From positions 1-46,868 of the forward strand of contig JBHICG010000024.1 in the NCBI GenBank assembly GCA_046759445.1: DNA of 46,868 nucleotides, in the 5' to 3' direction. Of this stretch, positions 8,601 through 29,865 are shown one piece after another. A program made the translations under genes and the position numbers. Position 1 is the stretch's first letter, and each line of letters begins with the position of its first letter. The notes below the pieces were generated by a model, which did no database searches, was not told the origin of the DNA, and was given only the letters and a program-made list of their open reading frames with translations. This DNA is from Candidatus Scalinduaceae bacterium. GTDB lineage: Bacteria; Planctomycetota; Brocadiia; Brocadiales; Scalinduaceae.

Positions 8601-8816
8601 AGTACCGAAAATGAGTTATTAAATACCGTTAACCAAATGGGGAATTTATCATCTTTTGAACTATTAGTCATACTTTTGGGGTTTATTGGAAGTATTTACG
8701 TCTTTTACATTATTTCAAAGAAGGTTGGATACATCTTAACGAAATCAACAATCGCTTGTTATTTTACCACTTTCGCAATTTTCACTCTAATGTATGCATA
8801 TATTCTGCAGCTTTAA
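5631..8816 (+). CDS. cNMP-binding + GAF + degenerate sigma54-type AAA+ + polytopic membrane 4Fe-4S (NapH/RdxA-like) fusion
   Basis: IFERGEKGNCLYII...GDCFG (cNMP); GITGWV...SILSVPL...IGAIN (GAF); GEDGTGK and WPGNVTELENV (AAA); FCGICPF, WCRYVCPLG and CVLCMNCFKNC plus many TM helices. Confidence 0.88.
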   Translation: MTDKTNYFRQKREFLKKHRPFSLLSNNLLKKVVSKIQVHHYGVGQIIFERGEKGNCLYIISSGCVLETLINNSAEETTVAVHREGDCFGAISLLTDEPYLATTKAKEDVELYVLYKKDLEELIQRNPVLGTYLNRTVSMRIKTFLDFLEKEKIKIVEELEDKSEKERKLDVINRVTTLFHLDEDINKILSMVVKEVNQEMNADACSIFLLDPISNNLILEAAVGFDHKAVKRIRMRLDEGITGWVVRNAEPVALEDVHTDQRVRFISEIHEDRLSSILSVPLGSKKDIIGAINIQTIDKRIYTYEDIRGLSILANHITLAISHARLKKRIHIAEHVKDKKDTEKIGFVGKGKYIDKINSFVDNMAMHDEPVLISGEDGTGKIPMAKIIHYKSKRYMGPFVKIDCRDINKDSWGAELFGREKSSYIISCDDAIKKEELEGDSTNKGTEIEDIATRLGYIELADSGTIFLNHVDILNQANQIKLLNYLQEGWFRRINGSDTIYSNARVVTSVSEDIATSIEKGRFDKNLYDILGKHSIHLKALRNQKRSIPMLTKHFLERISKELHKDVRNISDNAMGRLMSYDWPGNVTELENVLRRAVSLAKSNTITSELIFLGIPRGEKKWSFNILSLDVIKSFLKSKLFPLGFQIISFTFLIFTLCVLFIGHKDGLLNFANVFLWSAGLFFVYLSALISGRSFCGICPFAAAGDWVQRLKCFNLEIPKVLVTYGQYITIGLILLVFWFEGVTLMPRSSTLTASLIMFIFLGAIISGILFERRAWCRYVCPLGGMLGIYSLSSVTSLKANRNVCLNQCETHDCYLGTRLIKGCPLYLHPYGLESNRDCVLCMNCFKNCGHSSIKVNLQIPGSDIGELSNRSLVDSLISLSLLGVLFVEYRSLLSIDSQWFQLIYNYIGINEMALYTIIFVFVIAAPIVSIWLSDCICSGFSFGKAKERIADFGYAAIPLALMGHLAFYWDKLKANFWQLLEATNIYKTVSTENELLNTVNQMGNLSSFELLVILLGFIGSIYVFYIISKKVGYILTKSTIACYFTTFAIFTLMYAYILQL

Positions 8817-14448: not shown

Positions 14449-15900
14449 TTATGGATTACAATTGCCACAAGGTATGCCACCTGATTTACGTGCTTTTTTA
14501 GGCGAACTAAATTCAATTAAACCTTCAGTACCTAGTTCAGGACAATTAGATTTATGATATATGTTAGAGTTATTTGTGGCAAATACGGAAGATGAAACTT
14601 TATTAGAATTGTCTTGTTTTTCATTATTTTCTGTAGTGTATACAGAAGATTGCTTTGTGGATTCTATTCTCCTTGCGTTATAAGTTTTATTAATTCCCGC
14701 AATTTTATATGTGTATGAAGACAGTTCTAATATCTTAAATGTATATGCTTTCGCATGAATGTAAAATCGCAATGTAAGGGTATCTCCATTTATGTTCCAC
14801 TTACCTGCTTTTTTTTCTCCAGCATAAGTATTCAACATAAAAGTACCGTCTCTGAAGTATTCCATCACACCACCATCTTCATATTTCCAACGGCCTAAAA
14901 TTAAATTTGACTTGTCAGAATTGGCACTGGAAGTGGTTTTCTCAAATTGCTTCGTAGAAGTTTGGCCTACTTCAAAGTAATATGCCCAAGCTTGTCTTCC
15001 AGGCGAAGCAGTGAACACAACATCATATTCCCGTAGGGACTTACCAAAGTAGAAAGCATAACGGCCAGGAGAAAGCGGTGTTTCAGGTGTGAGACGAAAC
15101 ATGTCTGGCCTACTAGAAATTGGCTCGACCTTCAATCTCATCAACGTCTTGGGCCGCCAAAGATTGATCTTAATGGTATCATAAGGACTACGACCATATA
15201 CATTTTTGAAAAACTGCTGTTTAGTCCCGAGTATGTTGAATTGTCCTGCCTTAAGCTCACGCATTAATTCCAGCTTTCCTAGCCTAATGGAGGTAACATT
15301 AATACCTTGCTGGTAAAGAATGAAATTCAGTGAAGTTGTCCTCAACTTTACAGGGGGATTACCTTCCATTCCATCCACGGCCATACCACGATCACTGTTG
15401 CCTCCAACGACCAAGCCAAAAGTGGTTACTACAGGTGAAGATGGAAGTTTTTCGGGGCGATCATCAACTACAGCATAGAAGCCGTATGCAGTAGGTATAC
15501 TTTCTTGGATATCTTGGCCACTGTCAGAAGTATCCGGGATCGATGATGTGGCAGTTGGAGGAACAGAAAGTCTTTGAATTTGAGCTACTTCGGTTAAAGG
15601 CAAGTTTATATGCCCTTCTGACATGCTAAATTGAAAATCCCTCTTCTGAAATGTACCCTTCAAGATAGTTTTGTCTCTAAGGGTTAACATATCATCTTTG
15701 AATACAACAATGTCGTTTGTTCTAACATCCACTTCACCATAACGCGTACTGAATCTTATAACAGTGTCTACAATAGTGCCTTTAAAGACGCTGCCGTCCT
15801 TCATTTCAACTTTGACACTATGACCTCTTGCACCTACATTAGATATAAAGCATAATGATAAAAAAGCTGTAAGAAAAAAAATTGAAAAAAATCCAATCAA
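14449..15900 (-). CDS. Exported multidomain protein with C-terminal Ada-like Zn-binding domain
   Basis: Signal peptide; two small beta-rich repeats (KDGSVFKG / RDKTILKG); lipocalin-like GRW...DGTF...GKWNINGDTLTL; C-terminal YHKSNC...PCGNCNP. Confidence 0.75.
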   Translation of the reverse strand: MIGFFSIFFLTAFLSLCFISNVGARGHSVKVEMKDGSVFKGTIVDTVIRFSTRYGEVDVRTNDIVVFKDDMLTLRDKTILKGTFQKRDFQFSMSEGHINLPLTEVAQIQRLSVPPTATSSIPDTSDSGQDIQESIPTAYGFYAVVDDRPEKLPSSPVVTTFGLVVGGNSDRGMAVDGMEGNPPVKLRTTSLNFILYQQGINVTSIRLGKLELMRELKAGQFNILGTKQQFFKNVYGRSPYDTIKINLWRPKTLMRLKVEPISSRPDMFRLTPETPLSPGRYAFYFGKSLREYDVVFTASPGRQAWAYYFEVGQTSTKQFEKTTSSANSDKSNLILGRWKYEDGGVMEYFRDGTFMLNTYAGEKKAGKWNINGDTLTLRFYIHAKAYTFKILELSSYTYKIAGINKTYNARRIESTKQSSVYTTENNEKQDNSNKVSSSVFATNNSNIYHKSNCPELGTEGLIEFSSPKKARKSGGIPCGNCNP

Positions 15901-15991
15901 TTTAATAATGATAACGCTCCTTTCTAGAAGTCTGATACCCCCAGCAATAAGAGTAAGATGTAAATAATGCCGGTTTATTCCGATTTACTGC

Positions 15992-18091
15992 TCATCCCGC
16001 AACCTCTATTTGGTCTTTCGCATCCAGGAAGGGCCTTTCAACGGGTATCTGAGAATGGATAATCTTCATAAGCTGGCCAAAAAGGATAATAATTAATCCA
16101 ATTGGTATCCCTATAATTGTAAGACAGGAGATCCACCCATAGATCTCCGTCAATTTAGCTATGAAGACAAATGCCTTGAACTGTTCCAGGTCTTTAGCCT
16201 CTTTCCATGATCTTTTTATCGCCCATACGGTAAGAATAACCAGCAAGGAAAAGATTGCTAAGAGACGCAGAGAGTATAAACAAATCTCCAGTTGAAATCT
16301 ACGGTTCTCTTTCTGTGATTCGCTAATATCTGCGCTCGTTTCCTGATAGATCATTGTCAATTCTTTATTATATTCTTTTAATTTGCTCAACGATTCTTCA
16401 TGTTCTTTTTTATATTTATCAAGATATTTTTGCTCCAAGAGACCATATATGGGTTCTAATTTACTAACTTTATCTTTCTCCCCTTTAGAATCCCATAGCT
16501 TCCGTAAATAAAAAAAAGTATTTAGATTGGCATTTATTTCCTTTTTGTCAGCTCCCGCCAAGATTATATTGTCTAATTCATGAAGGACTTCCATTTCATA
16601 GGCCATTTCTGCATCTTTAATACGTTGTAATTTTTGGTAAAGCATCCCTAAATAGACCGTCAATGAAACCCCATCAGGTGTAGGAAGGTCTTTACTCATT
16701 CCTAATTGTTCTGAAGGAAAAACTTTTATCTTTGAGGCATACCCTATTCCATGTTTCTCAATTATCCTTTCCAAAGGAGGGAATGCCTTATTATATAAAT
16801 TATTCTGAACGGCGAATTGGGCAATATCCAGCAATGCCGAAGCATCTTCCGAAGATGTAGCCTTTTCCAACACCGCAATCGCATCACCCATTCTTCCATT
16901 ATCCAGAGAATATTTTGCTATCTGCAAGAATTGAGTATGTTTCCTTGACAATTCAGTGGCTCTATGAATGACACTCGAAGCTAATTCTTCAAAGTTATTT
17001 TTCAGGGCAAAAGTGCAAATTTGGAGTAGTTCTGTTGGGTTTTTAGCCTGATTTCTGGCCGCTTGGAGCACCTTTAGTGAGAGGCCCGTCCATTGCTTTT
17101 TATAGAGAAACTGCGCTATTTGAATAAAGTTATCGCTGTTTTTCATAAAAGGCATGGCCTTTTCTATTGCTTGTTCTGTGTGATCAGCATCATCTTGATC
17201 AACAAAGAACTTGACCAGGCTCAAAAGTAAATCCAGGTAAGCTGGATTATAGCTATATCTTCTAAAGTCGTAATTCAAAACGGATTTAAAATGTGAGATA
17301 GCCTTAGTAAAGTCTCCCTTCTCTAGATAAAGACATCCTAACGTATAGGCATATTCGGGTCCACGTGTTTCTACCTCCTCCCAGAGGTGAAGATAAGGTT
17401 TTGAAATATTGATCCTCTTAATATTGATTTTATTCCTTTCCTTTCTTTTCCCCTCCTCTAGTTTAAAGATTGCCCTTTTAACATCATCCATTTTCATCAG
17501 GATATTAACCTTATCGAGCTTATATTCTATATGGTTAGGCCCCTTCATTGGTTCTTTAGATTGAGGAATGCCCTGGCCAAAGACAGGGAGGCTAAATAGA
17601 ATAAGAATGGCGGCTAAAGACGCAATTATCAACCATCTTCTCTCTTGGAAAAACTCTTTTTTCCAAAAGAGAAGAAAAAGCAATATATTTATCAGTATAA
17701 TGGGAAATAATATATTGAGCAGATACTCACTGAATAACCATTGAGAGAGTAAACCTAAAAAAGAGAAAAAATAAGTAAAGAAACCTGCGAGCCCGATCCT
17801 TTTTATGACAAAAAGGGCTGTTTTCATACCGATTAATCTTTCCTGAAGGGAGGCCCTACGTTCTTCCTCAACTTTAATCTTTGAAGTAAGATCGGTCTCC
17901 TCTTGTATGAGTTGTTGCTTTTCTTGATTAAATTCAGCTTCTATCTGCCCCTTTTTTTCTAGAAAAGTTTTTTGGTACGCCTGCTTTTGCTCCAATCCTT
18001 TTTCCTGTTCCTTTCGCTCCCCAAAAGACAATTCAGTCGAAAAGACGCACCAAACAATTAGCAATAAAGGTATCATCGCCCATTTTTTCAT
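15992..18091 (-). CDS. Polytopic membrane protein with coiled coils and TPR/alpha-solenoid domain
   Basis: N-terminal leader, coiled coil, several TM helices, TPR (YAYTLGCLYLEKGDFTKAISHFKSVL), C-terminal coiled coil and 2 TM. Probable start MKKWAM at 18091 (ORF track starts at 18130). Confidence 0.8.
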   Translation of the reverse strand: MKKWAMIPLLLIVWCVFSTELSFGERKEQEKGLEQKQAYQKTFLEKKGQIEAEFNQEKQQLIQEETDLTSKIKVEEERRASLQERLIGMKTALFVIKRIGLAGFFTYFFSFLGLLSQWLFSEYLLNILFPIILINILLFLLFWKKEFFQERRWLIIASLAAILILFSLPVFGQGIPQSKEPMKGPNHIEYKLDKVNILMKMDDVKRAIFKLEEGKRKERNKINIKRINISKPYLHLWEEVETRGPEYAYTLGCLYLEKGDFTKAISHFKSVLNYDFRRYSYNPAYLDLLLSLVKFFVDQDDADHTEQAIEKAMPFMKNSDNFIQIAQFLYKKQWTGLSLKVLQAARNQAKNPTELLQICTFALKNNFEELASSVIHRATELSRKHTQFLQIAKYSLDNGRMGDAIAVLEKATSSEDASALLDIAQFAVQNNLYNKAFPPLERIIEKHGIGYASKIKVFPSEQLGMSKDLPTPDGVSLTVYLGMLYQKLQRIKDAEMAYEMEVLHELDNIILAGADKKEINANLNTFFYLRKLWDSKGEKDKVSKLEPIYGLLEQKYLDKYKKEHEESLSKLKEYNKELTMIYQETSADISESQKENRRFQLEICLYSLRLLAIFSLLVILTVWAIKRSWKEAKDLEQFKAFVFIAKLTEIYGWISCLTIIGIPIGLIIILFGQLMKIIHSQIPVERPFLDAKDQIEVAG

Positions 18092-18152
18092 CTTTAACCC
18101 CCATAAGAAATTAGTAATAAAGATATCCACACCCCTCTTTGCTAACCTTAGA

Positions 18153-20030
18153 TTACTCTTCTTTTACATATTCTTCATAGATATACCCGTCCCCTTTGGA
18201 GGCTTTAACCTTTACCCAACTTCCGGTGACCTCTAATTTTTGCATCCGAGTTCCCACTTTAACTTCTTCCATTACTTCGGAAAGGGGGGTAGGGGATAAT
18301 CTAATCTCTACAAAATCTTTTTTACTTCCTCCTTGCCAACTCTGGACAATAATCCATACGGAATTTCCCTTATGCTTTTCTACTTCCTTGCCATCTTCAA
18401 CATAAACCGTATCTATCCGGCCCTCTTTTTCTTTCGGATATTCTTTAACTACATCTTCATACGCTTCAATCGTATCCGCGTCTTTTGCCTCTTTAGAAGC
18501 CAGCTCCTCAATTCTGCTTTTCGCCAACTGAGAAAAATCCCCATTTGGGTACGTTATTAGAAATTTTTCTAATGATTCAATGGTATCTTCGCCTAATGCA
18601 ACATTAAAATCCAAAACTTCAAGACTATCTACGGATTCTTGGTTATATTTACTTTGAGGATATTTTCTTTTAAAATCTCGATATGCCTCTTTTGTGTTTG
18701 TTTTGACAACAAGAATGAAGGATAACTCCTCTATCCTGTTTTTTATGAGTCCTATACGTTCTTCATTTTTTTCGTTTCTTAAATTTTCAGTCAGTAATTC
18801 AATCTCCTGGGTATTTAATAAGACGCTGAATTCCTTTTCATCAATCCCTCTTATTGCGTCTGCAACATATTTACCATCCGGATATTCATCCAGATATTTT
18901 TTATAAGAATCTACAGTATCTTTAGATTTGGTTTGATTGTATTTTATGCCTTCAATTATTTGTTTTGCTTCTGATACAAACTTGCCGTCAGGATAATTTA
19001 TTATATATCTTTCTAAAGATACAGTGTTGTTGTCATATTTTGCCTGAGCAAATATTAATTCCTCAATCCTGTTTTTAGCTTTCTCTATAAATGTACTTTC
19101 AGGATTATTATCCATCCAGCGCTTCAATCTATCAATGTTATTAAAAAAACTCTCATCCCTGAATGTTAATTCATCCATCTTCAACCTTACCTCTTCTGCA
19201 TATTTGCCATTCGGATTATTTCTCAAATACATTGAGTAGTTGTTAACCGTACCTTCTTCATTTGTTAAACCGTAATGTATGTCATCGGCCCTATCTTTGG
19301 CATCTTGAGCAAAACGGGAATCAGGATACTGGTCTACAAATCTTTGATATAGAGCTGCCTTTCCAGTGAGGCTGGTTTCTATGGCATTTTTCTCTTTTTG
19401 TATAATCTTCAGTACATTCTTTCCATTAACCCATCCTTGACCAGTGTTCGGTACATTGATTTGATACCAATTGCCACTAAAATCTAATAGTCTAAATTCC
19501 GTGGCAAAACTGGTTGTTTTGTGTATGCTATAGGAAAACATTTTTGGCTCTTTCAGAATCTTTTGATATGGTTTCACCATTATGTAAACAGGAACTTTTG
19601 GTTTTTCTATTGATTCAAATTTCTTTCCAATAGTCCTGTCTATACTCGTTCTTGCGTTTGTAATTAACGAATTAAGCTCTTTTAATTCTTCGTCGGTACC
19701 CAAAGGCTTTACGCCACTAGACAGACTAATAACGTTTTCGTATAGGGAAATGGCCTTATCATAATCGTGCAAAACTTCTTCAAAGATAAGTCCCAATTGA
19801 TAATAAGCCTCAAGATTTTCCGGTTTTCTTTTGATTGATTTGGTAAATGCTGTAATTGCTGAAGGATAATCACCATCTGTCTTCAACTGTTTACCGCTTT
19901 TTATTGAAGAGTTACTGAGAAATTTTTTCAAGAAATCCTGTGCATTGACATGACTTTGGGAAAGGCAAATTAATAGGAAGGATAATAGGAAAGATAATAT
20001 AAACGAAGTGTTTAAGTGTGCTTTCATCAT
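18153..20030 (-). CDS. Exported TPR + SH3b + tandem helical-repeat protein
   Basis: Signal peptide; N-terminal TPRs; SH3-like NWYQI...GWV and SWVKV...GYIY; about 8 repeats of Y..Y...YP.G.F...A..RI.EL. Confidence 0.85.
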   Translation of the reverse strand: MMKAHLNTSFILSFLLSFLLICLSQSHVNAQDFLKKFLSNSSIKSGKQLKTDGDYPSAITAFTKSIKRKPENLEAYYQLGLIFEEVLHDYDKAISLYENVISLSSGVKPLGTDEELKELNSLITNARTSIDRTIGKKFESIEKPKVPVYIMVKPYQKILKEPKMFSYSIHKTTSFATEFRLLDFSGNWYQINVPNTGQGWVNGKNVLKIIQKEKNAIETSLTGKAALYQRFVDQYPDSRFAQDAKDRADDIHYGLTNEEGTVNNYSMYLRNNPNGKYAEEVRLKMDELTFRDESFFNNIDRLKRWMDNNPESTFIEKAKNRIEELIFAQAKYDNNTVSLERYIINYPDGKFVSEAKQIIEGIKYNQTKSKDTVDSYKKYLDEYPDGKYVADAIRGIDEKEFSVLLNTQEIELLTENLRNEKNEERIGLIKNRIEELSFILVVKTNTKEAYRDFKRKYPQSKYNQESVDSLEVLDFNVALGEDTIESLEKFLITYPNGDFSQLAKSRIEELASKEAKDADTIEAYEDVVKEYPKEKEGRIDTVYVEDGKEVEKHKGNSVWIIVQSWQGGSKKDFVEIRLSPTPLSEVMEEVKVGTRMQKLEVTGSWVKVKASKGDGYIYEEYVKEE

Positions 20031-20074
20031 AATATCCTCTTTTTGTTTTTTTCTTTAAGTGTGTCGTGGTAATC

Positions 20075-21205
20075 TTAATTGACCAGAACTTTAACAACAT
20101 CATTGGATAACTCAGTTATTGTTACCTCAATATCCATGAAATATGTTGTACTAATGATATCAGCCAGTGTCTGTGCAGAACCGGTGAATTTTAGAAGGAA
20201 CAGGGCTTTGCTATCCTTGAAATATTGTTGATTTACATGTCTTACCCCAAAGAGGTAGCTTATCCTTCTTTTAAAATCCTTCAACTTGTTATAGTCATTT
20301 ACAGATATTTCCAGATTTATATCCCTTCCATTCAGCAGTGAAGATCCCCAGACTATTGTGATCTCATCTATCAATAAACTACTAATATTCTCTCCTGCCT
20401 TGCTGAAGGCATTCCTGTAAGCAGACTCTCTGTTTGCACCAACGCCATTAATCCTCGTACTCTGTTCCGTCACGATCTTACCAGTCTCGATACTGGTAAC
20501 TTTTATATCCAGGTTAACAATACACCCAATAAGACCAGACATTTCTACCTCAGTGATATTTTCCACCCTTCCCTTGCCTAACATGAGAATTTCGGCCTGC
20601 AACTTATCACTATCGAGACCAATGAAGTTCCCTTTCTCAAAGGCATTAAGAATTTCTTTCTCTGTAAGGTTACCTGTAGAGAAGGGATCAACAATATTAA
20701 ATCCCTTTTTCGTAAGGATTTTTGTAATATGCTCTGCCGCATAGGAATTTCTAATCGTTTCTTGCCCATCTTCATCAATTAGTAGAATAATCCGTGGATT
20801 TCCCATAGCTTCAATAAGGATCTTCATGGCAGTCAAGTCATCTTTTATTGGCTCTATTGATATAACTACATTTACCTTTAAAAGGATTGATTCTTTATCC
20901 TTCTGCTCTTCCAAGATCTCATAGGTATTGATATAACCCTTTGCCTTTGTCATTATTGAATCATCAATTGAAATAGCATTCTGTGTATAGCTTTCTGCCG
21001 TAACAAAGGTTCCAAGTACCTTCCTCACTGCGTTACGGAAAGCGTCTTCAATCGCTCTCTGCCTTGCTGGTGCAACCTTACCATCGTAGATAGGAGATTC
21101 TCCATAGACAATGATGGTTTCTGTTGGTGATTCCACTGCCCATAGGATAGATGTAAGAAAAGACAAGATAATGGTAAAAAGATAAATTGTTGATTTCTGT
21201 TTCAT
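20075..21205 (-). CDS. Exported protein with FlgT N-terminal-like domain
   Basis: GESPI...ARQRAIEDAFRNAVRKVLGTFV...AKGYI..YEILEE pattern; AAAGGA RBS before ATG 21205. Confidence 0.75.
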   Translation of the reverse strand: MKQKSTIYLFTIILSFLTSILWAVESPTETIIVYGESPIYDGKVAPARQRAIEDAFRNAVRKVLGTFVTAESYTQNAISIDDSIMTKAKGYINTYEILEEQKDKESILLKVNVVISIEPIKDDLTAMKILIEAMGNPRIILLIDEDGQETIRNSYAAEHITKILTKKGFNIVDPFSTGNLTEKEILNAFEKGNFIGLDSDKLQAEILMLGKGRVENITEVEMSGLIGCIVNLDIKVTSIETGKIVTEQSTRINGVGANRESAYRNAFSKAGENISSLLIDEITIVWGSSLLNGRDINLEISVNDYNKLKDFKRRISYLFGVRHVNQQYFKDSKALFLLKFTGSAQTLADIISTTYFMDIEVTITELSNDVVKVLVN

Positions 21206-21238
21206 AATAATTATCCTTTCTAATTTATAGACGTTCTT

Positions 21239-21260
21239 GGTGAGCAATGCACACCCTACA
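21239..21260 (-). repeat. GTAG-type REP
   Basis: Minus strand tGTAGggtgtgcattgctcacc: GTAG followed by an imperfect palindrome. Confidence 0.55.
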
Positions 21261-21328
21261 TCTGATTTTTTCTTACAATTATCAAATACAAATCTCTTGG
21301 ATAATATGTAATTATTTTGTGTCTAATG

Positions 21329-22990
21329 CTATCTGTGTAAATCTGTGGTTAAAAGATTGTTAGCCCCTTGATGTCCCGGTCTTAATTCCAACACTGTCTC
21401 AAAGCATTTCCTTGCATCAATTATTTCCCCAATAGCTTTATAGGAAAGCCCTAAGTAATAAAGAGAATCAACATAATAAGGCCCCTCATGAGAGACTCTG
21501 GTTAAGTTATTTATCGCCTCTGTGTACTTTTCCTGTTTTAAGAAACTTAATCCTAGAAAATATCTTGCCTGCCTTAATTCCGGGTTTTCCTGTAGAATTT
21601 CTGAAAAAATCTTTTCTGCCCTTTTGTCTTCATTCCTTTCCAAGAGAACTCTTCCAAGTCCAACTTTGGCATCTATGTAATCAGGTGAAATTTGCAGGGC
21701 TTCTTTATAATGACTTTCTGCATTATTAGGCTTACCAATTTTCAAATACGAGTTTCCAAGGTTGTAATGTGCAAGAAGATGAACAGGTTTAAGAGAAAGA
21801 ACACCACGATATCGTTCAATAGCCTTGTCAATGTAATTTACTTTGTGATAGGCATTTCCAAGTTGGAAGCCGGCATCTATATCCTTAGGGTTTCCCTTTA
21901 AGGATTTCTCAAGATGTTCTATAGACTTCTGAAAATTTTCAATATTGTAATAACTAAGTCCCAGAAAATAATGCGCGTCAGTATAATCATATCCAAGTTC
22001 TATGGCGGTATTCAATTCCTGAATGGCCCCTTTATAAAAGCCTTTATAAAAATACCATTCACCCAGTAGTTCATGTTCTATGCTAGATTCGGCGTATTTC
22101 AGATCGAACTGAAAAATTTCATCATTTCCTTCGTTTATGATATAGGCATTGTTATTGCAATAAGTAATGGATGAAGGCTGTTTAAGGAATTCCTTAACAA
22201 GAAGGTGTTCTTTTATCAATCTTCCCGTGTTATCAAACTGATAAAGGGTATTGTTTAGATAATCGGTAATAAAGAGTCTATCACTTGCATCAATGGCAAT
22301 ACCTGATGGTAACATTAGTTTATCTTCTCCATAATCAATCTTTTCAAATTCAAATATTTCACGTGTTGTGGTTATTTTTAAAATTTTTCCAAGTCCTTTA
22401 TCTATGACATAAATGTTTCCCTCTAAGTCTAAATCTAAAGAGATAACGGAAGAATCTTGCAGTTCCAGACCGATCTGAATGGACTCAATGGTCTTACCAT
22501 CAGGTTTGAATATGTGAACTTTAGGCCCTATCACGTCCAAAACATATATATTATTATCTGCATCCATGGCCACATCCACAGGACGTTCCATACTCCCACC
22601 AAATCTACCGATTCTCTTTTTGATATTTCCATCAGGATCAATAACAAGGATTGTACGAAGGTCAGGGTTGGCAATATATATATTGTCAGTGGAATCTATA
22701 CAAACTCCATAAGGTGTAAATGGTTTGTCTTTATAATCCAGTTTAACCTGGACAACTTCAATGTTTCTCGTTACCGGAACAATCTTTAACAATCTATGAT
22801 TGTCACCGTCTGCAATAATAATCTTTCCTTGTGAGTTTACGGTTATATCATTGTGAGTTCCCAGGGTAAGTTTTTTGTATACTCCAACCATATCAAAATA
22901 GGGTGTGCTGGTTTCTCCGAAGGAATTTAAAGCATATCCTGTGAATATAAAGAATGATATTAAGGCTATTTTTGATCTTAATGGTTTCAT
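21329..22990 (-). CDS. Exported NHL beta-propeller + TPR protein
   Basis: Repeats PYGVCIDSTDNIYI, PVDVAMDADNNIYV, PSGIAIDASDRLFI followed by several TPRs (AHYFLGLSY, AHYNLGNSY). Confidence 0.9.
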   Translation of the reverse strand: MKPLRSKIALISFFIFTGYALNSFGETSTPYFDMVGVYKKLTLGTHNDITVNSQGKIIIADGDNHRLLKIVPVTRNIEVVQVKLDYKDKPFTPYGVCIDSTDNIYIANPDLRTILVIDPDGNIKKRIGRFGGSMERPVDVAMDADNNIYVLDVIGPKVHIFKPDGKTIESIQIGLELQDSSVISLDLDLEGNIYVIDKGLGKILKITTTREIFEFEKIDYGEDKLMLPSGIAIDASDRLFITDYLNNTLYQFDNTGRLIKEHLLVKEFLKQPSSITYCNNNAYIINEGNDEIFQFDLKYAESSIEHELLGEWYFYKGFYKGAIQELNTAIELGYDYTDAHYFLGLSYYNIENFQKSIEHLEKSLKGNPKDIDAGFQLGNAYHKVNYIDKAIERYRGVLSLKPVHLLAHYNLGNSYLKIGKPNNAESHYKEALQISPDYIDAKVGLGRVLLERNEDKRAEKIFSEILQENPELRQARYFLGLSFLKQEKYTEAINNLTRVSHEGPYYVDSLYYLGLSYKAIGEIIDARKCFETVLELRPGHQGANNLLTTDLHR

Positions 22991-23072
22991 TGATTATACT
23001 GCCAATCAAAATCTAACAAAAGCATTCTAAAAAAAGAATTCTAACCTAAATGATTATTATGCCATTAACTTT

Positions 23073-24185
23073 CTACCTCTTTTTTGGTTCTATCTCACTA
23101 ATCGAGACATTAAACGACGATTCCCCAATTAAATTATTTCTTCTGTCATATTTAAGATCTCCATAATCGTCAACTGCCAAAATCACATGCTCGCTGGTAA
23201 ATGAGAAAGAAGAGCCGGGCTGTCTTATTCTTTCTCTTGGTTTAAAACGAAGTGAAACGGTACTTGGAACGTCTTGCGTAAGTTCAAGTGGTGGTATGTT
23301 GTTATGTCTACCTGTAGCTCCTGCTCTAATACCACTTGCCTCCTCAAGTCTATATTCATTGCCTCGAACGTCTGTTAAATATGTGGAAATTTGTGACTCC
23401 CATGCCTGCGTAGGTAAGCTCAAGTACAAATTTTGTTTGGTCTTATTAATATATTTAAGGAAAATTACTACATTATTGTTTTGCATTACCTGTAATCCCA
23501 TCACCTCCACTCTAAGGTCTTTAAACTCTTGGAATTTTGTACCTAACTTTGTTTGTTGTGCTGGTCGTTGAGAAGAACGTGCGGAAATTGCTGTTTCTAT
23601 GCTAGATTGCGTATTAACCATTTCCTTTTCCATAAGTTTTGCCACAATGCCTATTTTAGGAATGCTTGTCCTTGCCACTGCAAAGACCCTGGCGGTTTCA
23701 ATCCCAATCACTCTGGCATTGATTTTAATATTACTCTCAAGGTCTGTCATTGAACCTGTAACGATAGCGTCAATACCTAATATCTTACCTACGCTTTCCA
23801 TTGCCTTTGCATCAAGGAGTCCGCTCATTGTGAGCCTTTGCTCACTCAGTACCTTCATCAACTGCCGTCTCTCCACAACCTCAAACTGGCCTGGGCTGGT
23901 AAGAAACAGTTCTGTGATCAATTCCTCAGCCAAATGTTGACCGAAGGCTGTTACCACTCCATCAAGGTTGCTGAACTCCACCACGGCGATCTTCTTTTTT
24001 CCAGTCTTGATTATGTTGTTTGAGATTTGCTGTGCCAGTTGCTTTATACCCTCCTCTAAGTTCGAGGCAGCAAACGTTGATGAAGGATGAACACAGATAA
24101 GGCATAAAAACGCAACCATGATAATGAGGCTATATGACTTTTTCTTGATAATGACAACAAACATATGAGGTATTTGTTTGCTCAT
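23073..24185 (-). CDS. Exported FlgO/CsgG-fold protein with C-terminal beta-sandwich domain
   Basis: KIAVVEFSNLDG...FGQHLAEEL...FEVVERRQL..VLSEQ...GKILGIDAIVTGS...INARVI. Confidence 0.82.
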   Translation of the reverse strand: MSKQIPHMFVVIIKKKSYSLIIMVAFLCLICVHPSSTFAASNLEEGIKQLAQQISNNIIKTGKKKIAVVEFSNLDGVVTAFGQHLAEELITELFLTSPGQFEVVERRQLMKVLSEQRLTMSGLLDAKAMESVGKILGIDAIVTGSMTDLESNIKINARVIGIETARVFAVARTSIPKIGIVAKLMEKEMVNTQSSIETAISARSSQRPAQQTKLGTKFQEFKDLRVEVMGLQVMQNNNVVIFLKYINKTKQNLYLSLPTQAWESQISTYLTDVRGNEYRLEEASGIRAGATGRHNNIPPLELTQDVPSTVSLRFKPRERIRQPGSSFSFTSEHVILAVDDYGDLKYDRRNNLIGESSFNVSISEIEPKKR

Positions 24186-24290
24186 ATTGAGTTTCTCCTT
24201 TCAATTTTGGGAACGATATGGTGGTATTACATACCTGACCAAATCTGCGGTCTATCAGTGGCAGGCAAGTCAATTCTATAATGCTGATTA

Positions 24291-24349
24291 TTGCCAGGAT
24301 AACAGGATGAGCTATTCAATATAGTTTGGTTAAATCCATGTTACCCTGG
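24291..24349. repeat. CAGGATAACAGGAT inverted-repeat family, copy 1
   Basis: ttgccaggataacaggat ... atccatgttaccctgg; related copies at 41924-42014 and 44743-44770. Confidence 0.6.
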
Positions 24350-24375
24350 TGAGCGGTAAAGAGTTTTCTAAATTA

Positions 24376-25386
24376 TTAATCAATAACAACCACTACCTTG
24401 GCCTCTCCAAGAATACCGCCTTTGCTGTCAGCTTGAAAGATCTTCTGCGCGTCAGAGTCTGATACTACGATATCGGCATTGTATTTTCCATTAATTTTTT
24501 GAGCCTTGATAATCAGTGGATTATTGCCGATACGGGCCACCTGCTTTGCTGCATCAATACTCTTCCTGTAACCCGTAAGACCCTCCTCAATAGTAGCATT
24601 CGGATTAGCACTGGCCACATCGTATACCGATTCTCCTTTTTCATCAAGTACCCTGGGGTACATGGCTGGTTTGGCTCCCAATCCCATTGCATCGATGATG
24701 AGCCCTGTGTAATTCTCAGCTTTTTTAGTGATCGACTCCTGCGCGGGTTCAATAGCTGATGATATCGCACTCCTCTTTGAGTGACTTACGACTCTTACAT
24801 TTCGTACTCTTTCCATTTGCACAGGTAAAAGGACAGAACCAAGCCCTTTTGCCCCATCCATGGACATCTTCATCATAACCTGATAGCTTCCATCTTCGAA
24901 CTGTTTGATCTCTTCTACTTCAGCGTTTTTAACCATACCTGACACTCTGGTGCGCACTACTCTATTTTCGTTAATATAGTTTCTGGTGGTGGATTCAGCA
25001 TCCACTCTAACCTCATTGGCCATTTCAACCATTCTGCCATAAGCTTCATCTATAGCCGCTCTCTTTGACCTCACCCTGGCCTGAGCAGCGCTAACAACGT
25101 CAGGTGGCATAACACCGTCACCAACTGAATAAATGACCCTGTTTTCCCAATCAATCCTTCCTATCATGTCACCACCTTCAAGAACATTGACCTGTTCTAC
25201 TACTTGTTTGCCAGTTTCGAGATTAGTGGTATTTACTGATGTTTCAGTCTCCATGGAGCCTTTGTTTTCTTCCTGAGAATAAACATTTGAAGTGCCAAAC
25301 ATAGCTAAAGACATAATCAAACTAAAAATACAACTATTCAAAAAGACCTGAAAAATATTTGTTTTCCTAAGATAATTGTTCCTCAT
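24376..25386 (-). CDS. Exported LPP20/FlgP-like domain protein
   Basis: IDWENRVIYSVGDG...ARVRSKRAAIDEAY...VSGMVKNA, then YTGLIIDA...PAMYPRV; GGAGGA RBS before ATG 25386. Confidence 0.75.
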   Translation of the reverse strand: MRNNYLRKTNIFQVFLNSCIFSLIMSLAMFGTSNVYSQEENKGSMETETSVNTTNLETGKQVVEQVNVLEGGDMIGRIDWENRVIYSVGDGVMPPDVVSAAQARVRSKRAAIDEAYGRMVEMANEVRVDAESTTRNYINENRVVRTRVSGMVKNAEVEEIKQFEDGSYQVMMKMSMDGAKGLGSVLLPVQMERVRNVRVVSHSKRSAISSAIEPAQESITKKAENYTGLIIDAMGLGAKPAMYPRVLDEKGESVYDVASANPNATIEEGLTGYRKSIDAAKQVARIGNNPLIIKAQKINGKYNADIVVSDSDAQKIFQADSKGGILGEAKVVVVID

Positions 25387-25551
25387 TTTACTTTCCTCCA
25401 TTTCTGATTGTTTTAATTTATAGAAATTTCAAGTCATAAATGTAAACATTCTTTTACGTGATAACTGATCTGTATTAAAGATTACTAAAGACTTACTATC
25501 ATGTCATATTACATCACCTCCTTTAACATATATATGATGAATTTTTCATGC

Positions 25552-27825
25552 TTATTGTTCAATTTTTGATCTTATTTTTCTTGCTACAATTTCTGCAAGG
25601 TCATTAATCTTCTTTTTCCCATGAGTTTTATGGTGTTCAATAGTTACAATTTCTGTTGTTTTGACATTAACAACTCGGATATCTACTTCTAAAGTATTTT
25701 CAAAGATTCTGTAACTTCCATATATAATATAGTCTGCCTTCGCTGCCTTTCCTATATTCATTGCATTAACGGAATCAGATAGCTTGTAGAATCCAATTTC
25801 CATTGATTTTGCTTCTGCGTCCAGTGTAAAGCTATTGATAATCTTCAAATCTTGTTTTTCTACTAATTTCTGTCCTATAATCCAGGCAATGGCTTCACCT
25901 TCTCCTATCCTTGTTAGATGTCCGCCATCAAATGAAAGAGAAAACAGAAGAATTGTTGCTGAGCTTTTACCATCATTTATCTCAGGCTTACTAGAAATAA
26001 TTTCCATGTAGTAATGGGCAAGCTCTTCATCTTGTCTAAAATCAATTACTTTTCTTAGAAAAGATTTGGCATCATTTTCTTTATCTAACCTCCAGGATAA
26101 AACACCAAGGTTAAAGAGGGTATCACTGTTTTCCGGTTCTAAGGATAGAGCCTTTTGAAAATACTCACTTGATTTTTCAATTTTACCTTCACTGAGAAAG
26201 CCGATGGCAAGGGCGTTGTTAGCCCTGGCTTTTTGCCAGTTAAGTGCGTCATTAATTTCAAGGGCTTGATAATACTCTGTAAGAGCCTCTTCCTTCTTGC
26301 CTTCTGTAAAAAGGATATCTCCTTGTACAACATAACTCATCACATTTTTGGTATCCCCTACAAGAGATATTTTGATCATTTCACGAGCCTTATCTATATC
26401 TCCTTTCTCAAAATATAAAGCAGCCAAACCATCATAGCCCAATCCAAGTTGATTATTATCATTTACTATTAACTCTTCAAAAATTTTCATCGCTTCCTGA
26501 GATTTTCCTGATTTATAAATTTTATAAGCATCTTCATATTGTTTAACCAAATAGGTGTTTTCAGGGTCTGTAAAGAATGAATAATCAATTGCAGAATTAT
26601 ATGAAGACCAATTAAACCATGTGAGATATCCAATAATAAGAATAACAGAAACACCCAGCATGAGAGAATATTTCTTAAAATTTAAGGTAAAGGCAGTGAG
26701 AATATTTGAAGAAGTGTTCGTTATATAGACTCTTGCTGCCTCATCAAGAATCTTTTCTTCTTTTGTTGCAATTGTAGTAGCAGGATCACCATAATGTATA
26801 TAGCTTGCCCATAGAAGATCTCCTAAATCTCTTTCCTTAAGCACCTCATTTTTGGCTTTCTGGAGAGATTTTCCGACGCTTTCCCCAAGAATTAGTTCTT
26901 TATAAAATTTAGATGCGAAACTTGCACTTCCTTCATCGTGAATAACCCATAAAGGGCCTATAAAGTTCTGGACACCTGACATAAGGAAACCGTTTCCTAT
27001 CCCAAAGGTCTTTTCTTCATATAGATATCCTGTTTCCCAATTGGTTGTGGCCAGTGATTGACAAGCGTTGGAAAATACAAGTATGGGGCTTGTATCCATC
27101 CGTCCCATTTCTTGTGAGGTTAGTATTCCTTCCTTAAGAATCCATCCACTTCTTTCAGGATTCTTTTCATCAAAAAAAGCATGGCCAATGTAATGGATTA
27201 GATCCTTGTTTTTCATTTCTGAAATCAAGCTTAGTTTGTCAGCCTGCCTTCCTCCTATCAGTTCAATTTCTATATTGGGATTATCTTCTAAGATCACACA
27301 TAAGGATTCAGCTTCATGCTGAGCATGTTTAAGGCTTTCTGTTGGGTCGATGATGATAAGCATTTTCAAGGGGGCTTGACTATCTTCTCTATGTTGTCTT
27401 TTCCGGAGGAATTGATCTGTGCGAACTTGTCTGCCAATCATAAATTTTAAGGTTAAGAAGTCTTTCCCATCGAAACAGAGTTCCCATGGAATGTAGATCA
27501 ATTGATCATCAAGTTTTAAATAAAGTTCTGTATTCTCTCCCTTTTGTAGATATCTTTGAACATTTGCAGGTAAAAGTTGTGTGAACAGAATGCTTCCTAT
27601 CTTCTTTAATTCCTCCTGAACGATCTGTCCAGCTTTGTTGTCCATCTCATAAAACATCTTATTTGCAAGAAGCGTAATCCGGTTGATCTCTCTACAAATT
27701 CCATCTAGAAATTCTTTTTCAACCTTAATTTCACCTTTTGAGGAGATGGGCCCCTTTTCCTCTATGTCTACAATGTTTGTGTTTCCATGACGATATATAG
27801 TTATGTACTTAGGCATATTGGCCAA
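25552..27825 (-). CDS. Membrane-anchored CHAT (caspase/HetF-like) protease with periplasmic TPRs and C-terminal FlgO/CsgG-like domain
   Basis: YIPWEL, IHYIGH (catalytic His) and LVFSNACQS (catalytic Cys), WASYIHYGDP; one TM (YSLMLGVSVILIIGYLTWF); TPRs; IGKAAKADYIIYGSY...VDIRVVNVKT. TTG 27825 is 9 nt after AGGAGG (ORF track starts at 27834). Confidence 0.9.
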   Translation of the reverse strand: MANMPKYITIYRHGNTNIVDIEEKGPISSKGEIKVEKEFLDGICREINRITLLANKMFYEMDNKAGQIVQEELKKIGSILFTQLLPANVQRYLQKGENTELYLKLDDQLIYIPWELCFDGKDFLTLKFMIGRQVRTDQFLRKRQHREDSQAPLKMLIIIDPTESLKHAQHEAESLCVILEDNPNIEIELIGGRQADKLSLISEMKNKDLIHYIGHAFFDEKNPERSGWILKEGILTSQEMGRMDTSPILVFSNACQSLATTNWETGYLYEEKTFGIGNGFLMSGVQNFIGPLWVIHDEGSASFASKFYKELILGESVGKSLQKAKNEVLKERDLGDLLWASYIHYGDPATTIATKEEKILDEAARVYITNTSSNILTAFTLNFKKYSLMLGVSVILIIGYLTWFNWSSYNSAIDYSFFTDPENTYLVKQYEDAYKIYKSGKSQEAMKIFEELIVNDNNQLGLGYDGLAALYFEKGDIDKAREMIKISLVGDTKNVMSYVVQGDILFTEGKKEEALTEYYQALEINDALNWQKARANNALAIGFLSEGKIEKSSEYFQKALSLEPENSDTLFNLGVLSWRLDKENDAKSFLRKVIDFRQDEELAHYYMEIISSKPEINDGKSSATILLFSLSFDGGHLTRIGEGEAIAWIIGQKLVEKQDLKIINSFTLDAEAKSMEIGFYKLSDSVNAMNIGKAAKADYIIYGSYRIFENTLEVDIRVVNVKTTEIVTIEHHKTHGKKKINDLAEIVARKIRSKIEQ

Positions 27826-27839
27826 TAGAAACAACCTCC

Positions 27840-28532
27840 TTATTTTTTTTCGAGTGGTAAAAAACGAAATCTCATTTCTAAATCTTCCTTGGGGATTTTG
27901 ATCGTATAATAACCCATGGTTATATTGGGAAATTCGGCGTTGCCATGGCTTGAAGTGTTCCTGGAGAGAAGGAGTCGGTTATCCATGTAGAGGGTAATTC
28001 TTGCTTTCTTTAATGGGATTTCATCTTTCATTATAAGAACTTTCATTGATGCCCTAATACCTTCTCCGCGAATAAGCTCAACCTTGATATTAATATTTTC
28101 TATCTTTTGCTCAATATTAAGGCTTTCCTCTTTTTCTTCCATTCCTTTTCTAAAGGCATGCGCAGGGATAAGATTATTGCCAATGTTTACTTCAACGCCT
28201 TCTGGTAGAAGGCTGGTCTTAACAAATTTTAAACCTCGTTCTGTAAGAGATATTATGTATTCGGTAACCTTTTTTTGGGTTGATACGGTTCTCTCTCTTT
28301 CTGATACCAACTTAATAACTTTCTCCATTAATTCTGCTGGAACAGGAGAATTTTCATCTTGTGACATGGCCCTTAATGATCGTTTAAAATGTACAACCTC
28401 TTTTAGGCAAGGATCACAATCAATCAGGTGTTTCTCTATTACTTCTTTCTCATCACCAATAATGGCGCCCACCGTATAGTTATAAAGCTCCTGATCTTTT
28501 GGACATTCTTTAGTATTTTGTTCATTTGTCAT
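27840..28532 (-). CDS. zf-HC2 (ZAS) anti-sigma factor, soluble, with C-terminal beta-sandwich
   Basis: C-P...EKHLIDCDPC (HxxxCxxC); no TM; lies directly after the ECF sigma gene. Confidence 0.85.
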   Translation of the reverse strand: MTNEQNTKECPKDQELYNYTVGAIIGDEKEVIEKHLIDCDPCLKEVVHFKRSLRAMSQDENSPVPAELMEKVIKLVSERERTVSTQKKVTEYIISLTERGLKFVKTSLLPEGVEVNIGNNLIPAHAFRKGMEEKEESLNIEQKIENINIKVELIRGEGIRASMKVLIMKDEIPLKKARITLYMDNRLLLSRNTSSHGNAEFPNITMGYYTIKIPKEDLEMRFRFLPLEKK

Positions 28533-28589: not shown

Positions 28590-29534
28590 TTAAGAAATTT
28601 GTTGTTCTCTGTTCTGTAAATCATTTAATATCTCATTTAATCTTGCCCTGGCGTTCTTAATTTTTGATGACACTGTTCCTACCGACACATTGAGAAGTTT
28701 AGCTATTTCCCTATAAGATACCTTAGGGGAAGACTCCCGATATTTCTTCAGGAGTTTTTCCTTCTGTTTCTTTCTCCATAATACTTTTCTTTCCAGTTCA
28801 TTCTTATTAATAACCAATTGCTCTACTTCTATGGTACTTTTAAACTTATTATTCTTTAGTTTCTTAATATGCTTTTCATAGATAAGTATCCAGTAGTTAA
28901 TCTTATCCAACTCCTCTCTCTTCTTTTTGTAAAGTTCATAACGTTTTGATAGGGATTCTTCCAGATTAAATATATTTTCTGTAGTCTCTTGCAGATTCCT
29001 TCCTGAAATCCTTGAAATGACCCTAATATCTTCAGATTCTATGTCAATCTCCGAAAAGGAGAGAAGGTTAAGATATATCCTTTCGTCATCATCCAATCTT
29101 TTTATTGCGACCTCAATCTTTCTTAGATCTTCTTTTTCCTCTATTTCTTCCTTTGTGGTGGATATAGGGTCTTTCAGAATATCTCTCATTACCATTTCAC
29201 CTACTCCTTCATTGCCTTGGAGCGGGAAATCTATGGAATATATGGACATCTCAACATCCGGTTTGCGTATCCATTCTTTAAAAAGGTGATCTAATATTAG
29301 AAACTGAAAAGAACGGATTTTGCACTCTCCACGAAAAGTAATAAATCTCTTGTAGATTCTATCCTTCTCAAAACAGTAACAGTAAAAGTCCGCAGCCCTT
29401 TCTTCGTCTAGCTTATGAACCTTTATAGGAAAATTATAAATATCTTCTCCAAAGATATCCTGGAATGTCCTTATAGCTTGGATATCTCCTTTACAACAAA
29501 GGCTTAAAAGGCTCTTTAAATCGTCGAGTTCCAG
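28590..29534 (-). CDS. ECF-type sigma-70 factor with long insertion before the region-4 HTH; CTG start
   Basis: The frame stays open 95 codons upstream of ATG 29249 and encodes a region-2-like segment (DEERAADFYCY...FRGECKIRSF...ILDHLFKEWIRK). AAGGAG lies 7 nt before CTG 29534, with an in-frame TAA just upstream. C-terminal SYREIAKLLNVSVGTVSSKIKNARARL. Confidence 0.87.
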   Translation of the reverse strand: MELDDLKSLLSLCCKGDIQAIRTFQDIFGEDIYNFPIKVHKLDEERAADFYCYCFEKDRIYKRFITFRGECKIRSFQFLILDHLFKEWIRKPDVEMSIYSIDFPLQGNEGVGEMVMRDILKDPISTTKEEIEEKEDLRKIEVAIKRLDDDERIYLNLLSFSEIDIESEDIRVISRISGRNLQETTENIFNLEESLSKRYELYKKKREELDKINYWILIYEKHIKKLKNNKFKSTIEVEQLVINKNELERKVLWRKKQKEKLLKKYRESSPKVSYREIAKLLNVSVGTVSSKIKNARARLNEILNDLQNREQQIS

Positions 29535-29865
29535 GATATGTCTCCTTTATATCGTATATGACGATTATTTTCAGATAACTGTTTAGATGTATAAAGAAAC
29601 AAAGAATAAGTTTTTCTTTATCTTTTTGTGGTTTGGTAATGAAGTTGAAGCGGTAAATTTATGATCTTTATAGTTGAATCATACTCTAAGCTTTTATGAT
29701 AAAAAAGTAAAGAGTATTCATAGTAAGCATAAGAGTTGGTTTATGATAGTAATAACCCATGGTAAGACAATTAAGAATTGATCATATGGGGGCTTATGTA
29801 ATATAAATCTGTTTGATTATCCTTAAATCAGCTTTCTGTCAGCTATCTTGAAGTTATGAGACGCT

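Follow-up and report, generated by a model that had tools for sequence, protein, structure and literature searches.

The closest described counterpart of the locus reported here is the H-ring of the Vibrio flagellar motor. According to an in situ study of Vibrio cholerae, FlgT, FlgP and FlgO form three concentric rings that contact one another under the outer membrane and are tied to it by lipidated FlgO and FlgP (10.64898/2025.12.02.691832). In the FlgP family, ring formation correlates with an insert located after the SHS2 helix (PMC12222027). Homologues of FlgT, FlgO and FlgP/LPP20 are likewise encoded together in a Candidatus Scalinduaceae bacterium (NCBI GenBank assembly GCA_046759445.1, contig JBHICG010000024.1, positions 1 to 46,868), as genes g4, g6 and g7 of a seven-gene block that, unlike the Vibrio H-ring, has no flagellar neighbours. 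The whole stretch of 46,868 nucleotides, termed the window, is contig C24 of a 3.6-Mb genome that is 97% complete. The block differs further from the Vibrio H-ring in that its core includes an obligatory NHL-TPR partner, g5, and in that it is joined to genes for a sigma factor, an anti-sigma-like protein and a CHAT protein, hereafter the triad. The reading preferred here, with a probability of about 0.45, is that the block encodes a non-flagellar, H-ring-like periplasmic scaffold with lineage-specific additions, coupled to a signalling relay formed by the triad.

Described relatives exist for the triad as well. In Myxococcus xanthus, DdvS, a sigma factor of the extracytoplasmic function (ECF) type, is paired with the TPR-CHAT anti-sigma DdvA, and it is proposed that a protease triggers release of the sigma factor (PMC11506125). 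In the type III-E Craspase, made up of Cas7-11 and the TPR-CHAT protein Csx29, the CHAT protease cuts the sigma-binding protein Csx30 and frees the ECF sigma factor RpoE, and the system is known in Scalindua and Jettenia, according to two reports (PMC10028731, PMC9825189). Gating of a sigma factor by CHAT therefore has precedents in Craspase-Csx30-RpoE and in DdvA/DdvS. The activation proposed for the window protein differs from that of Craspase in coming from the envelope rather than from RNA. No Cas family was detected among the 37 window proteins scanned with Pfam, in a scan that did not include a search for repeat arrays.

The seven open reading frames (ORFs) of the block follow one another in the same orientation on the minus strand, from 14449 to 25401. 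They are numbered so that g7, behind the CHAT gene, is the first in the direction of transcription and g1 the last. The same-strand run extends upstream through the CHAT gene (gap of 150 nt), the anti-sigma gene (gap of 5 nt) and the sigma gene (gap of 57 nt), and it ends downstream of g1, where a family 9 glycosyltransferase gene on the opposite strand converges with it. The four core genes and the triad are as follows.

24376..25401, minus strand: g7, 341 aa, exported, two domains; N-domain LPP20/FlgP-like (SHS2 fold) with a conserved insert
23073..24185, minus strand: g6, 370 aa, exported; FlgO/CsgG-N-like domain at residues 49-177 and an unnamed beta-rich C-terminal part
21329..22990, minus strand: g5, 553 aa, exported; NHL beta-propeller and about seven TPR repeats
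20075..21247, minus strand: g4, 390 aa, exported; full-length FlgT-like protein, LipL46-like
25552..27834, minus strand: CHAT protein; CHAT domain at residues 79-350, one membrane helix at 389-410, TPR, FlgO-like C-terminal domain at about 663-755
27840..28532, minus strand: anti-sigma-like protein, 230 aa, soluble, zf-HC2 type, no membrane segment
28590..29534, minus strand: sigma-70-family gene, 314 aa from a probable CTG start at 29534; an ATG at 29249 gives 219 aa

The initial annotation, made from the sequence of the window, had described seven co-oriented genes with short gaps that encode exported or membrane proteins rich in interaction scaffolds, with no obvious enzyme, and in these respects it was confirmed. 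From g1 to g7 the gaps are 91, 22, 44, 81, 82 and 190 nt; the upstream limit given then, 25386, is the second ATG of g7, whose ORF extends to 25401. A hydropathy script placed an N-terminal hydrophobic segment above threshold in six of the seven products, and the N-terminus of g5 is signal-like by eye while falling under that threshold. Pfam identified TPR repeats in g2, g3 and g5, NHL in g5 and SH3_3 in g3, the coiled coils of g2 being read from the sequence by eye rather than computed, and neither Pfam nor NCBIfam placed any of the seven products in an enzyme family. Two broader proposals fared less well. The genes do not form a single conserved seven-gene module, since a conserved four-gene core, g7-g6-g5-g4, is accompanied by three variable genes. 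The suggested envelope-spanning machine likewise gained no support: g2 is the only membrane-embedded product, and the block holds no gene for an outer-membrane barrel. The initial annotation also missed that g6, g4 and g7 are FlgO-, FlgT- and LPP20/FlgP-like, respectively.

Homology to flagellar ring proteins was examined for each member of the core. The product of g6 matched the Pfam family FlgO (PF17680) with an E value of 1e-11 and 45.2 bits against a cut-off of 22.6, over profile positions 2-127 of 130. For g4, the NCBIfam LipL46 match had an E value of 6.1e-27, far below the family cut-off, and an AlphaFold model (mean predicted local distance difference test, pLDDT, 73.5, from a 12-row alignment) matched a chain of the Vibrio LPHT ring, 8z5n (E 8.3e-12), and FlgT, 3w1e (E 3.4e-11), each over about 390 columns. 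The search for g7 homologues returned 171 sequences, the distant ones carrying LPP20 (PF02169). The best Protein Data Bank match of the g7 model was Treponema pallidum Tp0624 (5jir, E 2.3e-10), which covers both domains over 283 columns and which, unlike g7, is reported to carry an additional OmpA-like domain. The C-domain of g7 is modelled confidently and has no family name. The g7 model also matched 9hmf_A (E 2.5e-4), a chain of the Campylobacter jejuni motor scaffold that appears to be FlgP, judging from its size and from PMC12222027. Compared with the Campylobacter basal disk and scaffold (FlgP, FlgQ, PflA/B/C/D), g7 is thus predicted to share the SHS2/LPP20 fold and the position of the insert after the long SHS2 helix, as in the FlgP family, and TPR partners are common to both; the g7 insert is unmodelled and its context non-flagellar, unlike in the Campylobacter scaffold. 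The fourth member, g5, matched NHL (E 6.6e-16) and TPR_2 (E 2.4e-33), and its orthologues of 543-599 aa stand between g7 and g4 in other phyla.

Two of these proteins also recall secretion components, which raises the possibility of a CsgG/PelC-type secretion or assembly channel that exports amyloid or polysaccharide. The product of g6 matched CsgG (E 8.6e-15), and the middle domain of the g4 model has lower matches to structures of CsgG, GNA1162, PelC, LptE and LpoB. The g6 match, on the other hand, covers just positions 6-106 of the 210 in the CsgG profile, so that the channel-forming half is missing, and the block contains no substrate, synthase or barrel gene, leaving a channel most improbable.

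A flagellar role has to be weighed against the non-flagellar scaffold as well, namely that the products are true flagellar accessories, an H-ring or a basal-disk and stator scaffold whose genes are separated from the rest of the flagellar set. In Campylobacter, motors are scaffolded by TPR proteins such as PflA and PflB, which, together with the FlgT/FlgP/FlgO homology and the presence of FlhA and FlgI in this genome, lends the idea some appeal. Both of these genes lie on contig C3 rather than on the window contig, and the neighbours of the block are signalling genes, not flagellar ones. FlhA was not found in three of five module-bearing genomes tested, comprising a Contendobacter metagenome-assembled genome (MAG), a Desulfobacteraceae MAG and the isolate draft of Thiocapsa imhoffii, which again separates the module from the Vibrio H-ring. 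Of 41 relatives, 23 have FlhA, 10 have a g7 relative and 8 have a g4 relative. Five of the eight genomes that match g4 have FlhA, as do 18 of the 33 that do not. The latter include both genomes of the same genus (97% and 93% complete), in which FlhA was present and neither g7 nor g4 matches were found. The comparison, as far as incomplete genomes permit it, gave no sign that the module depends on a flagellum. With the absence of lipidation sites added, flagellar accessories are a very unlikely explanation.

In order to assess the conservation of the non-flagellar scaffold genes and their tie to the triad, 122 loci (L numbers) were fetched, 77 around g7 relatives in reference genomes and 45 around g4 relatives in metagenomes. 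Their ORFs were labelled by phmmer with the proteins of the window and of contig C27 of the same genome, and 129 and 110 ORFs were checked with Pfam. An LPP20-like and a FlgT_N-like ORF lay within 8 kb of each other in 42 of the 122 loci, and all four core genes were present in 15, hosted by Brocadiaceae MAGs (L014, L015), a Desulfobacteraceae MAG (L019), Thiocapsa imhoffii (L020) and several metagenome contigs. The core thus recurs in Brocadiales, Desulfobacterota and Gammaproteobacteria, its usual order elsewhere being g7-g5-g4-g6 or g7-g6-g5-g4, and the Competibacteraceae loci L016-18 retain g7, g5 and g4.

Of the 15 four-gene loci, nine extend 2.5 kb or more upstream of the core and were taken as informative, and in four of these nine (L092, L093, L100 and L015) a protease and an anti-sigma gene accompany the core. 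L092 and L093 (80% g4 identity) carry sigma, anti-sigma and CHAT followed by g7-g6-g5-g4 in the same order as the window. L100 (33% g4 identity) has a sigma-like ORF, a zf-HC2 anti-sigma, CHAT, g6, g7, g5 and g4. In L015 an HTH protein and a zf-HC2 anti-sigma are followed by a 1099-aa lipoprotein caspase that takes the place of CHAT directly before g7. Partial copies in L013 and L096, cut by contig ends, also show the junction. Because the order behind the triad is kept in L092/L093 and the gene set in L100, the arrangement goes beyond chance. The first ORF of L112 has a putative CHAT match; it is cut by a contig end, and the locus was left out of the counts.

The remaining five informative loci (L014, L019, L020, L103, L109) have unrelated neighbours and no protease or sigma nearby, and no protease or sigma lies near the core in L016-18 either; since the core occurs without either nearby, the scaffold does not depend on the triad. 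Linkage of the core to the triad is accordingly real but facultative. The tie that the initial annotation had drawn between the whole block and the triad, with synteny across Brocadiales and other Gram-negative bacteria as its check, consequently holds in part: it stands for g7, g6, g5 and g4, which recur, with the triad in four of nine informative loci and without it in five, and it fails for g3, g2 and g1. In other phyla the core is joined instead to cell-wall domains (PG_binding_1, M23, CHAP, LysM, SLT, SLH, transglutaminase), with PG_binding_1 fused to the FlgO-like protein. These loci, the cell-wall domains and the 150-nt gap between CHAT and g7 all suit an independent housekeeping envelope scaffold, for example an outer-membrane/peptidoglycan brace, that merely adjoins a triad sensing or controlling other things. 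This explanation is weighed further below, with the evidence from caspase-fold proteases.

The CHAT protein itself provides a second connection between triad and core. It matched Pfam CHAT with an E value of 2.8e-31, and its residues 663-755 align to the FlgO-like domain of g6 (BLASTP E 3e-4; hhalign probability 75.9%, E 2.3e-5). His218 and Cys258 are invariant in all 11 aligned sequences, L100 included, and are presumably the catalytic dyad, as assigned from the GH and SNxCQS motifs. Hydropathy and flanking charges, judged by eye, suggest that the CHAT domain is cytoplasmic and the TPR and FlgO-like part periplasmic. The architecture is rare, the periplasmic half being matched by 12 proteins at 51% identity or more, with the other 40 matches partial and mostly TPR-rich. 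Like DdvS/DdvA, the window triad brings together a sigma factor, a zinc-finger anti-sigma and a TPR-CHAT protein across the inner membrane. DdvA has its CHAT domain in the periplasm and in one protein with the anti-sigma, whereas in the window the predicted cytoplasmic CHAT domain precedes a single transmembrane helix, the anti-sigma is separate and soluble with no transmembrane segment, and the periplasmic part consists of TPR and the FlgO-like domain. A complex prediction of g7 residues 60-336 with CHAT residues 411-760, made from their own alignments and without controls, gave no answer (score 0.00) and speaks neither for nor against binding.

The anti-sigma-like protein matched NCBIfam NF052375 below its cut-off (E 2.6e-7), and its counterparts in L100, L015, L137 and L145 carry Pfam zf-HC2. 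A 229-aa ORF upstream of the L137 anti-sigma gene was considered as a sigma factor and rejected, as it has no similarity to the window sigma (E 0.24). The window sigma reached 33.9 bits against TIGR02937 (cut-off 42.9). Its translation probably begins at the CTG at 29534, which precedes the first ATG by 285 nt: the frame is open for 99 codons upstream of that ATG, AAAGGAG stands 7 nt before the CTG, and L093 has TTG at the aligned position.

A second, paralogous envelope cluster of this genome is found on contig C27 (L011, 1878-16302, minus strand). Its members are a g7-like gene, a lipoprotein of 482 aa without family assignment, an exported TPR-CHAT protein (1080 aa), a CsgG plus FGE-sulfatase protein, FlgT_N, a TPR plus CsgG/FlgO plus DUF4384 protein and two exported caspases. 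Nine regions around paralogues of the C27 type were taken from six relatives; Peptidase_C14 stands beside FlgT_N-like genes in three of them and zf-HC2 anti-sigma genes occur in two. In relative G030, a 415-aa exported protein (L143, 10199-11446, plus strand) fuses a Peptidase_C14 caspase to an LPP20 domain, and its gene adjoins a FlgT-like gene, with CsgG/LpoB-like genes near. Nitrospirota matches of the C27 CHAT protein found by phmmer were considered as proteases and not counted, being TPR-only.

A functional tie of the four-gene core with the triad is supported by the recurring synteny (L092/L093, L096, L100, L015), the C27 cluster, the caspase::LPP20 fusion and the FlgO-like end of CHAT. 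The same material bears on the housekeeping scaffold introduced above. Caspase-fold proteases recur in unrelated arrangements (the window, C27, L015, L100, L143, L144, L145), one of which is the caspase::LPP20 fusion; CHAT has a FlgO-like domain of its own, and an upstream motif is common to g7 and sigma. A housekeeping scaffold that owes nothing to its neighbours is therefore rather doubtful. A broader proposal than the scaffold-relay reading is that FlgT/FlgP/FlgO-like non-flagellar rings or lattices under the outer membrane dock caspase-fold proteases. Some of these would be exported, as in the C27-type clusters and the caspase::LPP20 fusion, and others, as in the window, would be a transmembrane CHAT protein that signals the platform's condition to a sigma factor through cleavage of the anti-sigma. 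This proposal is on balance unlikely to hold. Nitrospirota clusters of LPP20/GNA1162 (DUF799)/CsgG-like lipoproteins (L041, L128) resemble the module in their LPP20-like and CsgG-like parts and TPR partner, and differ from it in full-length CsgG and in GNA1162-like, transglutaminase, SLH and FecR-domain proteins. No CHAT, caspase or sigma was seen in the two loci of the Nitrospirota type scanned with Pfam (L041, L028).

Further evidence for a connection between sigma and the core comes from two promoter-like motifs.

29555..29584, minus strand: AAACAG-N17-TCATATA, 20 nt upstream of the sigma CTG start
25531..25560, minus strand: GAACAA-N17-TCATATA, 130 nt upstream of g7, where it overlaps the stop codon of CHAT

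ECF promoters typically have an AAC core in their -35 element. The two 36-nt sites are identical at 22 positions, and the pattern RAACAR-N17-TCAWATA, set post hoc, has exactly these two matches in the window, upstream of sigma and g7, where 0.08 would be expected. L013, L092 and L093 retain the motif at both sites and L096 retains it at the g7 site, and the copy upstream of sigma sits in a conserved upstream block in the first three. As a sequence pattern, the copy upstream of g7 is a lead towards a sigma-dependent promoter, not a demonstration of one. A scan for consensus promoters and terminators gave counts equal to those in shuffled sequence (57 against 56.2 and 11 against 11.5). The spacer between CHAT and g7 (25402-25551, minus strand) contains a conserved AAAGGAGGTGAT block that is kept at 80% protein divergence and is followed by frames of just 2-3 codons; the block may be a leader or a regulatory element. 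Only two metatranscriptome runs, both of a single study, covered parts of the region, with small shares of 0.11 and 0.07. The RNA contigs are short and mostly 90-95% alike, indicating related strains, and touch 22 of 30 and 25 of 30 bins, uncovered bins being uninformative; some lie across the CHAT/g7 gap (25176-25869). DNA carry-over may have contributed to these contigs as a whole.

The scaffold-relay reading would join these observations as follows. Under the outer membrane, the FlgT-like g4, the FlgP/LPP20-like g7 and the FlgO-like g6 would form a scaffold with the NHL-TPR protein g5, to which the lineage adds g3, a TPR-SH3b protein that putatively binds peptidoglycan, g2, a TPR protein of the inner membrane, and g1, an exported protein of no known family. 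The CHAT protein would cross the inner membrane, present its TPR repeats and FlgO-like domain in the periplasm and dock on the scaffold in the way that FlgO docks on FlgP. If the scaffold or envelope changed, the cytoplasmic CHAT protease would become active, cut the soluble anti-sigma and free the sigma factor. The sigma factor, in turn, would transcribe its own operon and, from the look-alike promoter at the CHAT/g7 junction, the scaffold genes. The initial annotation had offered the sensing complex and the sigma regulon output as alternatives. The shared promoter-like motif favours the module as regulon output and the FlgO-like domain shared by CHAT and g6 favours it as sensor, and the module may serve as sensor platform and output at once. 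The analysis shows the gene content, folds, synteny, conserved motif and the paralogous and fused forms; how the parts assemble and dock, what is cleaved, whether the promoter is used and what the signal is are inferred.

Besides the core loci without protease or sigma, several results weigh against this account. The homology of the core has soft points: g7 has no Pfam match with its own sequence, its model is of middling quality (mean pLDDT 66), with a pLDDT below 50 for the conserved insert at 125-151, while g4 scored just under the FlgT_N cut-off in Pfam (E 4.6e-6, 27.5 bits against 28.8) and its template modelling scores with FlgT are low, about 0.3. Furthermore, a canonical lipobox Cys at the predicted cleavage site was seen in none of the seven products, g6 and g7 included (judged by eye, without a predictor), whereas FlgO and FlgP of the Vibrio H-ring are lipoproteins. 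Linkage and regulation are open to similar objections. L092 and L093 are near-duplicates, leaving few independent linked lineages. Only Sigma70_r4_2 (region 4) was detected in sigma, even when the frame was read over 318 residues. The motif pattern was defined from the two sites that it then matches, the -35 half of the copy upstream of g7 overlaps the last CHAT codons, so that coding constraint accounts for part of its conservation, no exact copy of the motif was found in L100, and with a spacing of N16-18 it occurs 17 times genome-wide. RNA contigs from related strains, finally, cannot show one transcript.

The patchy distribution of the module within the genus, where g7 and g4 were not found in the two relatives of 97% and 93% completeness, suggests another role for the scaffold, that of positioning caspase-fold proteases to detect envelope damage by phage or predators, with the sigma output, or the exported caspases of the C27-type clusters, executing a defence or cell-death response. 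CHAT and caspases are typical of conflict systems, and toxin-antitoxin or transposase genes neighbour several loci (HigB in L093, HepT/MNT and PIN-like in L014, IS200 in L015, DDE in L016). DdvA/DdvS and Craspase moreover connect CHAT to sigma factors in defence. PADLOC, for its part, returned only weak TPR/BovA-like matches and no defence system, no effector gene is evident among the seven, and the window locus is flanked by RecN and the family 9 glycosyltransferase, both housekeeping genes. A defence role is thus judged decidedly unlikely.

The three remaining genes of the block are lineage-specific add-ons, not conserved partners.

18153..20030, minus strand: g3, 625 aa, exported; TPR/BamD-CpoB-like repeats and C-terminal SH3b; variable accessory
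15992..18130, minus strand: g2, 712 aa, polytopic; about five hydrophobic segments, charged helical stretches and a weak TPR region
14449..15900, minus strand: g1, 483 aa, exported, no known family; C-terminal Cys/His-bearing module of about 55 aa

The g3-g2-g1 tail was found in L097 only, and none of the three genes stood beside the core in reference-genome loci, apart from weak g3-labelled (TPR) matches in L014 and L025. In g3, Pfam detected YfiO (E 3.5e-11) and SH3_3 (E 4e-9), and the protein remained under the NCBIfam cut-offs for YbgF (68.3 against 90.1) and BamD (64.2 against 81.4). A paralogue of 691 aa on contig C1 (L012, 8504-10579, minus strand), 62% identical over 549 residues, stands alone with no core gene nearby. 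In the L092/L093 lineage g3 is longer (945-998 aa), with a DUF4234 membrane domain (L093, 11140-16453, plus strand), and is followed by a PEGA and cyclophilin-type prolyl isomerase protein, so that an enzyme is attached to the module there. Pfam assigned TPR_19 to g2 (E 7.3e-8), which was found in none of 40 relatives and, besides the window, in the single locus L097. For g1, Pfam gave no match, ESM Atlas gave nothing usable and no full-length counterpart was found among relatives. Its residues from about 425 to 483 (14449-14625, minus strand) form a module of about 55 residues with one His and three Cys and no family match; this module ends many unrelated proteins in relatives (open frames of 141-852 aa) and a BamE-domain protein on contig C1, and may be a sorting tag or a small metal-binding domain.

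Two further proteins of the window have unusual domain combinations. A 701-aa fusion (33623-35728, minus strand) joins ScdA_N, an NnrS-like membrane domain and DUF1858, and a 1061-aa sigma-54 activator (5631-8816, plus strand) contains cNMP-binding and GAF domains with a C-terminal Fer4_5 match.

In the full-text literature covered, with subscription journals outside that coverage, no description of a non-flagellar FlgT/FlgP/FlgO-like module was found, nor of any such module linked with CHAT or caspases. Proteins of the H-ring and basal disk are regarded as late additions to the flagellum, and a widespread flagellum-independent set would change the reading of their origin. The module would also point to an unstudied structure at the interface of outer membrane and cell wall. 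If the docking-platform proposal is true, the module would represent a device for surveillance of the envelope that reuses components of flagellar rings, as well as a second way, topologically inverted, in which CHAT acts on a sigma factor. Furthermore, it would give bacterial caspase homologues, most of which have no known trigger or substrate, a defined set of partners. The repeated pairing with CHAT or caspases, here with sigma and anti-sigma, offers a testable case of protease-gated transcription driven from the periplasm, and it arises in anammox bacteria, whose envelope biology is poorly known.

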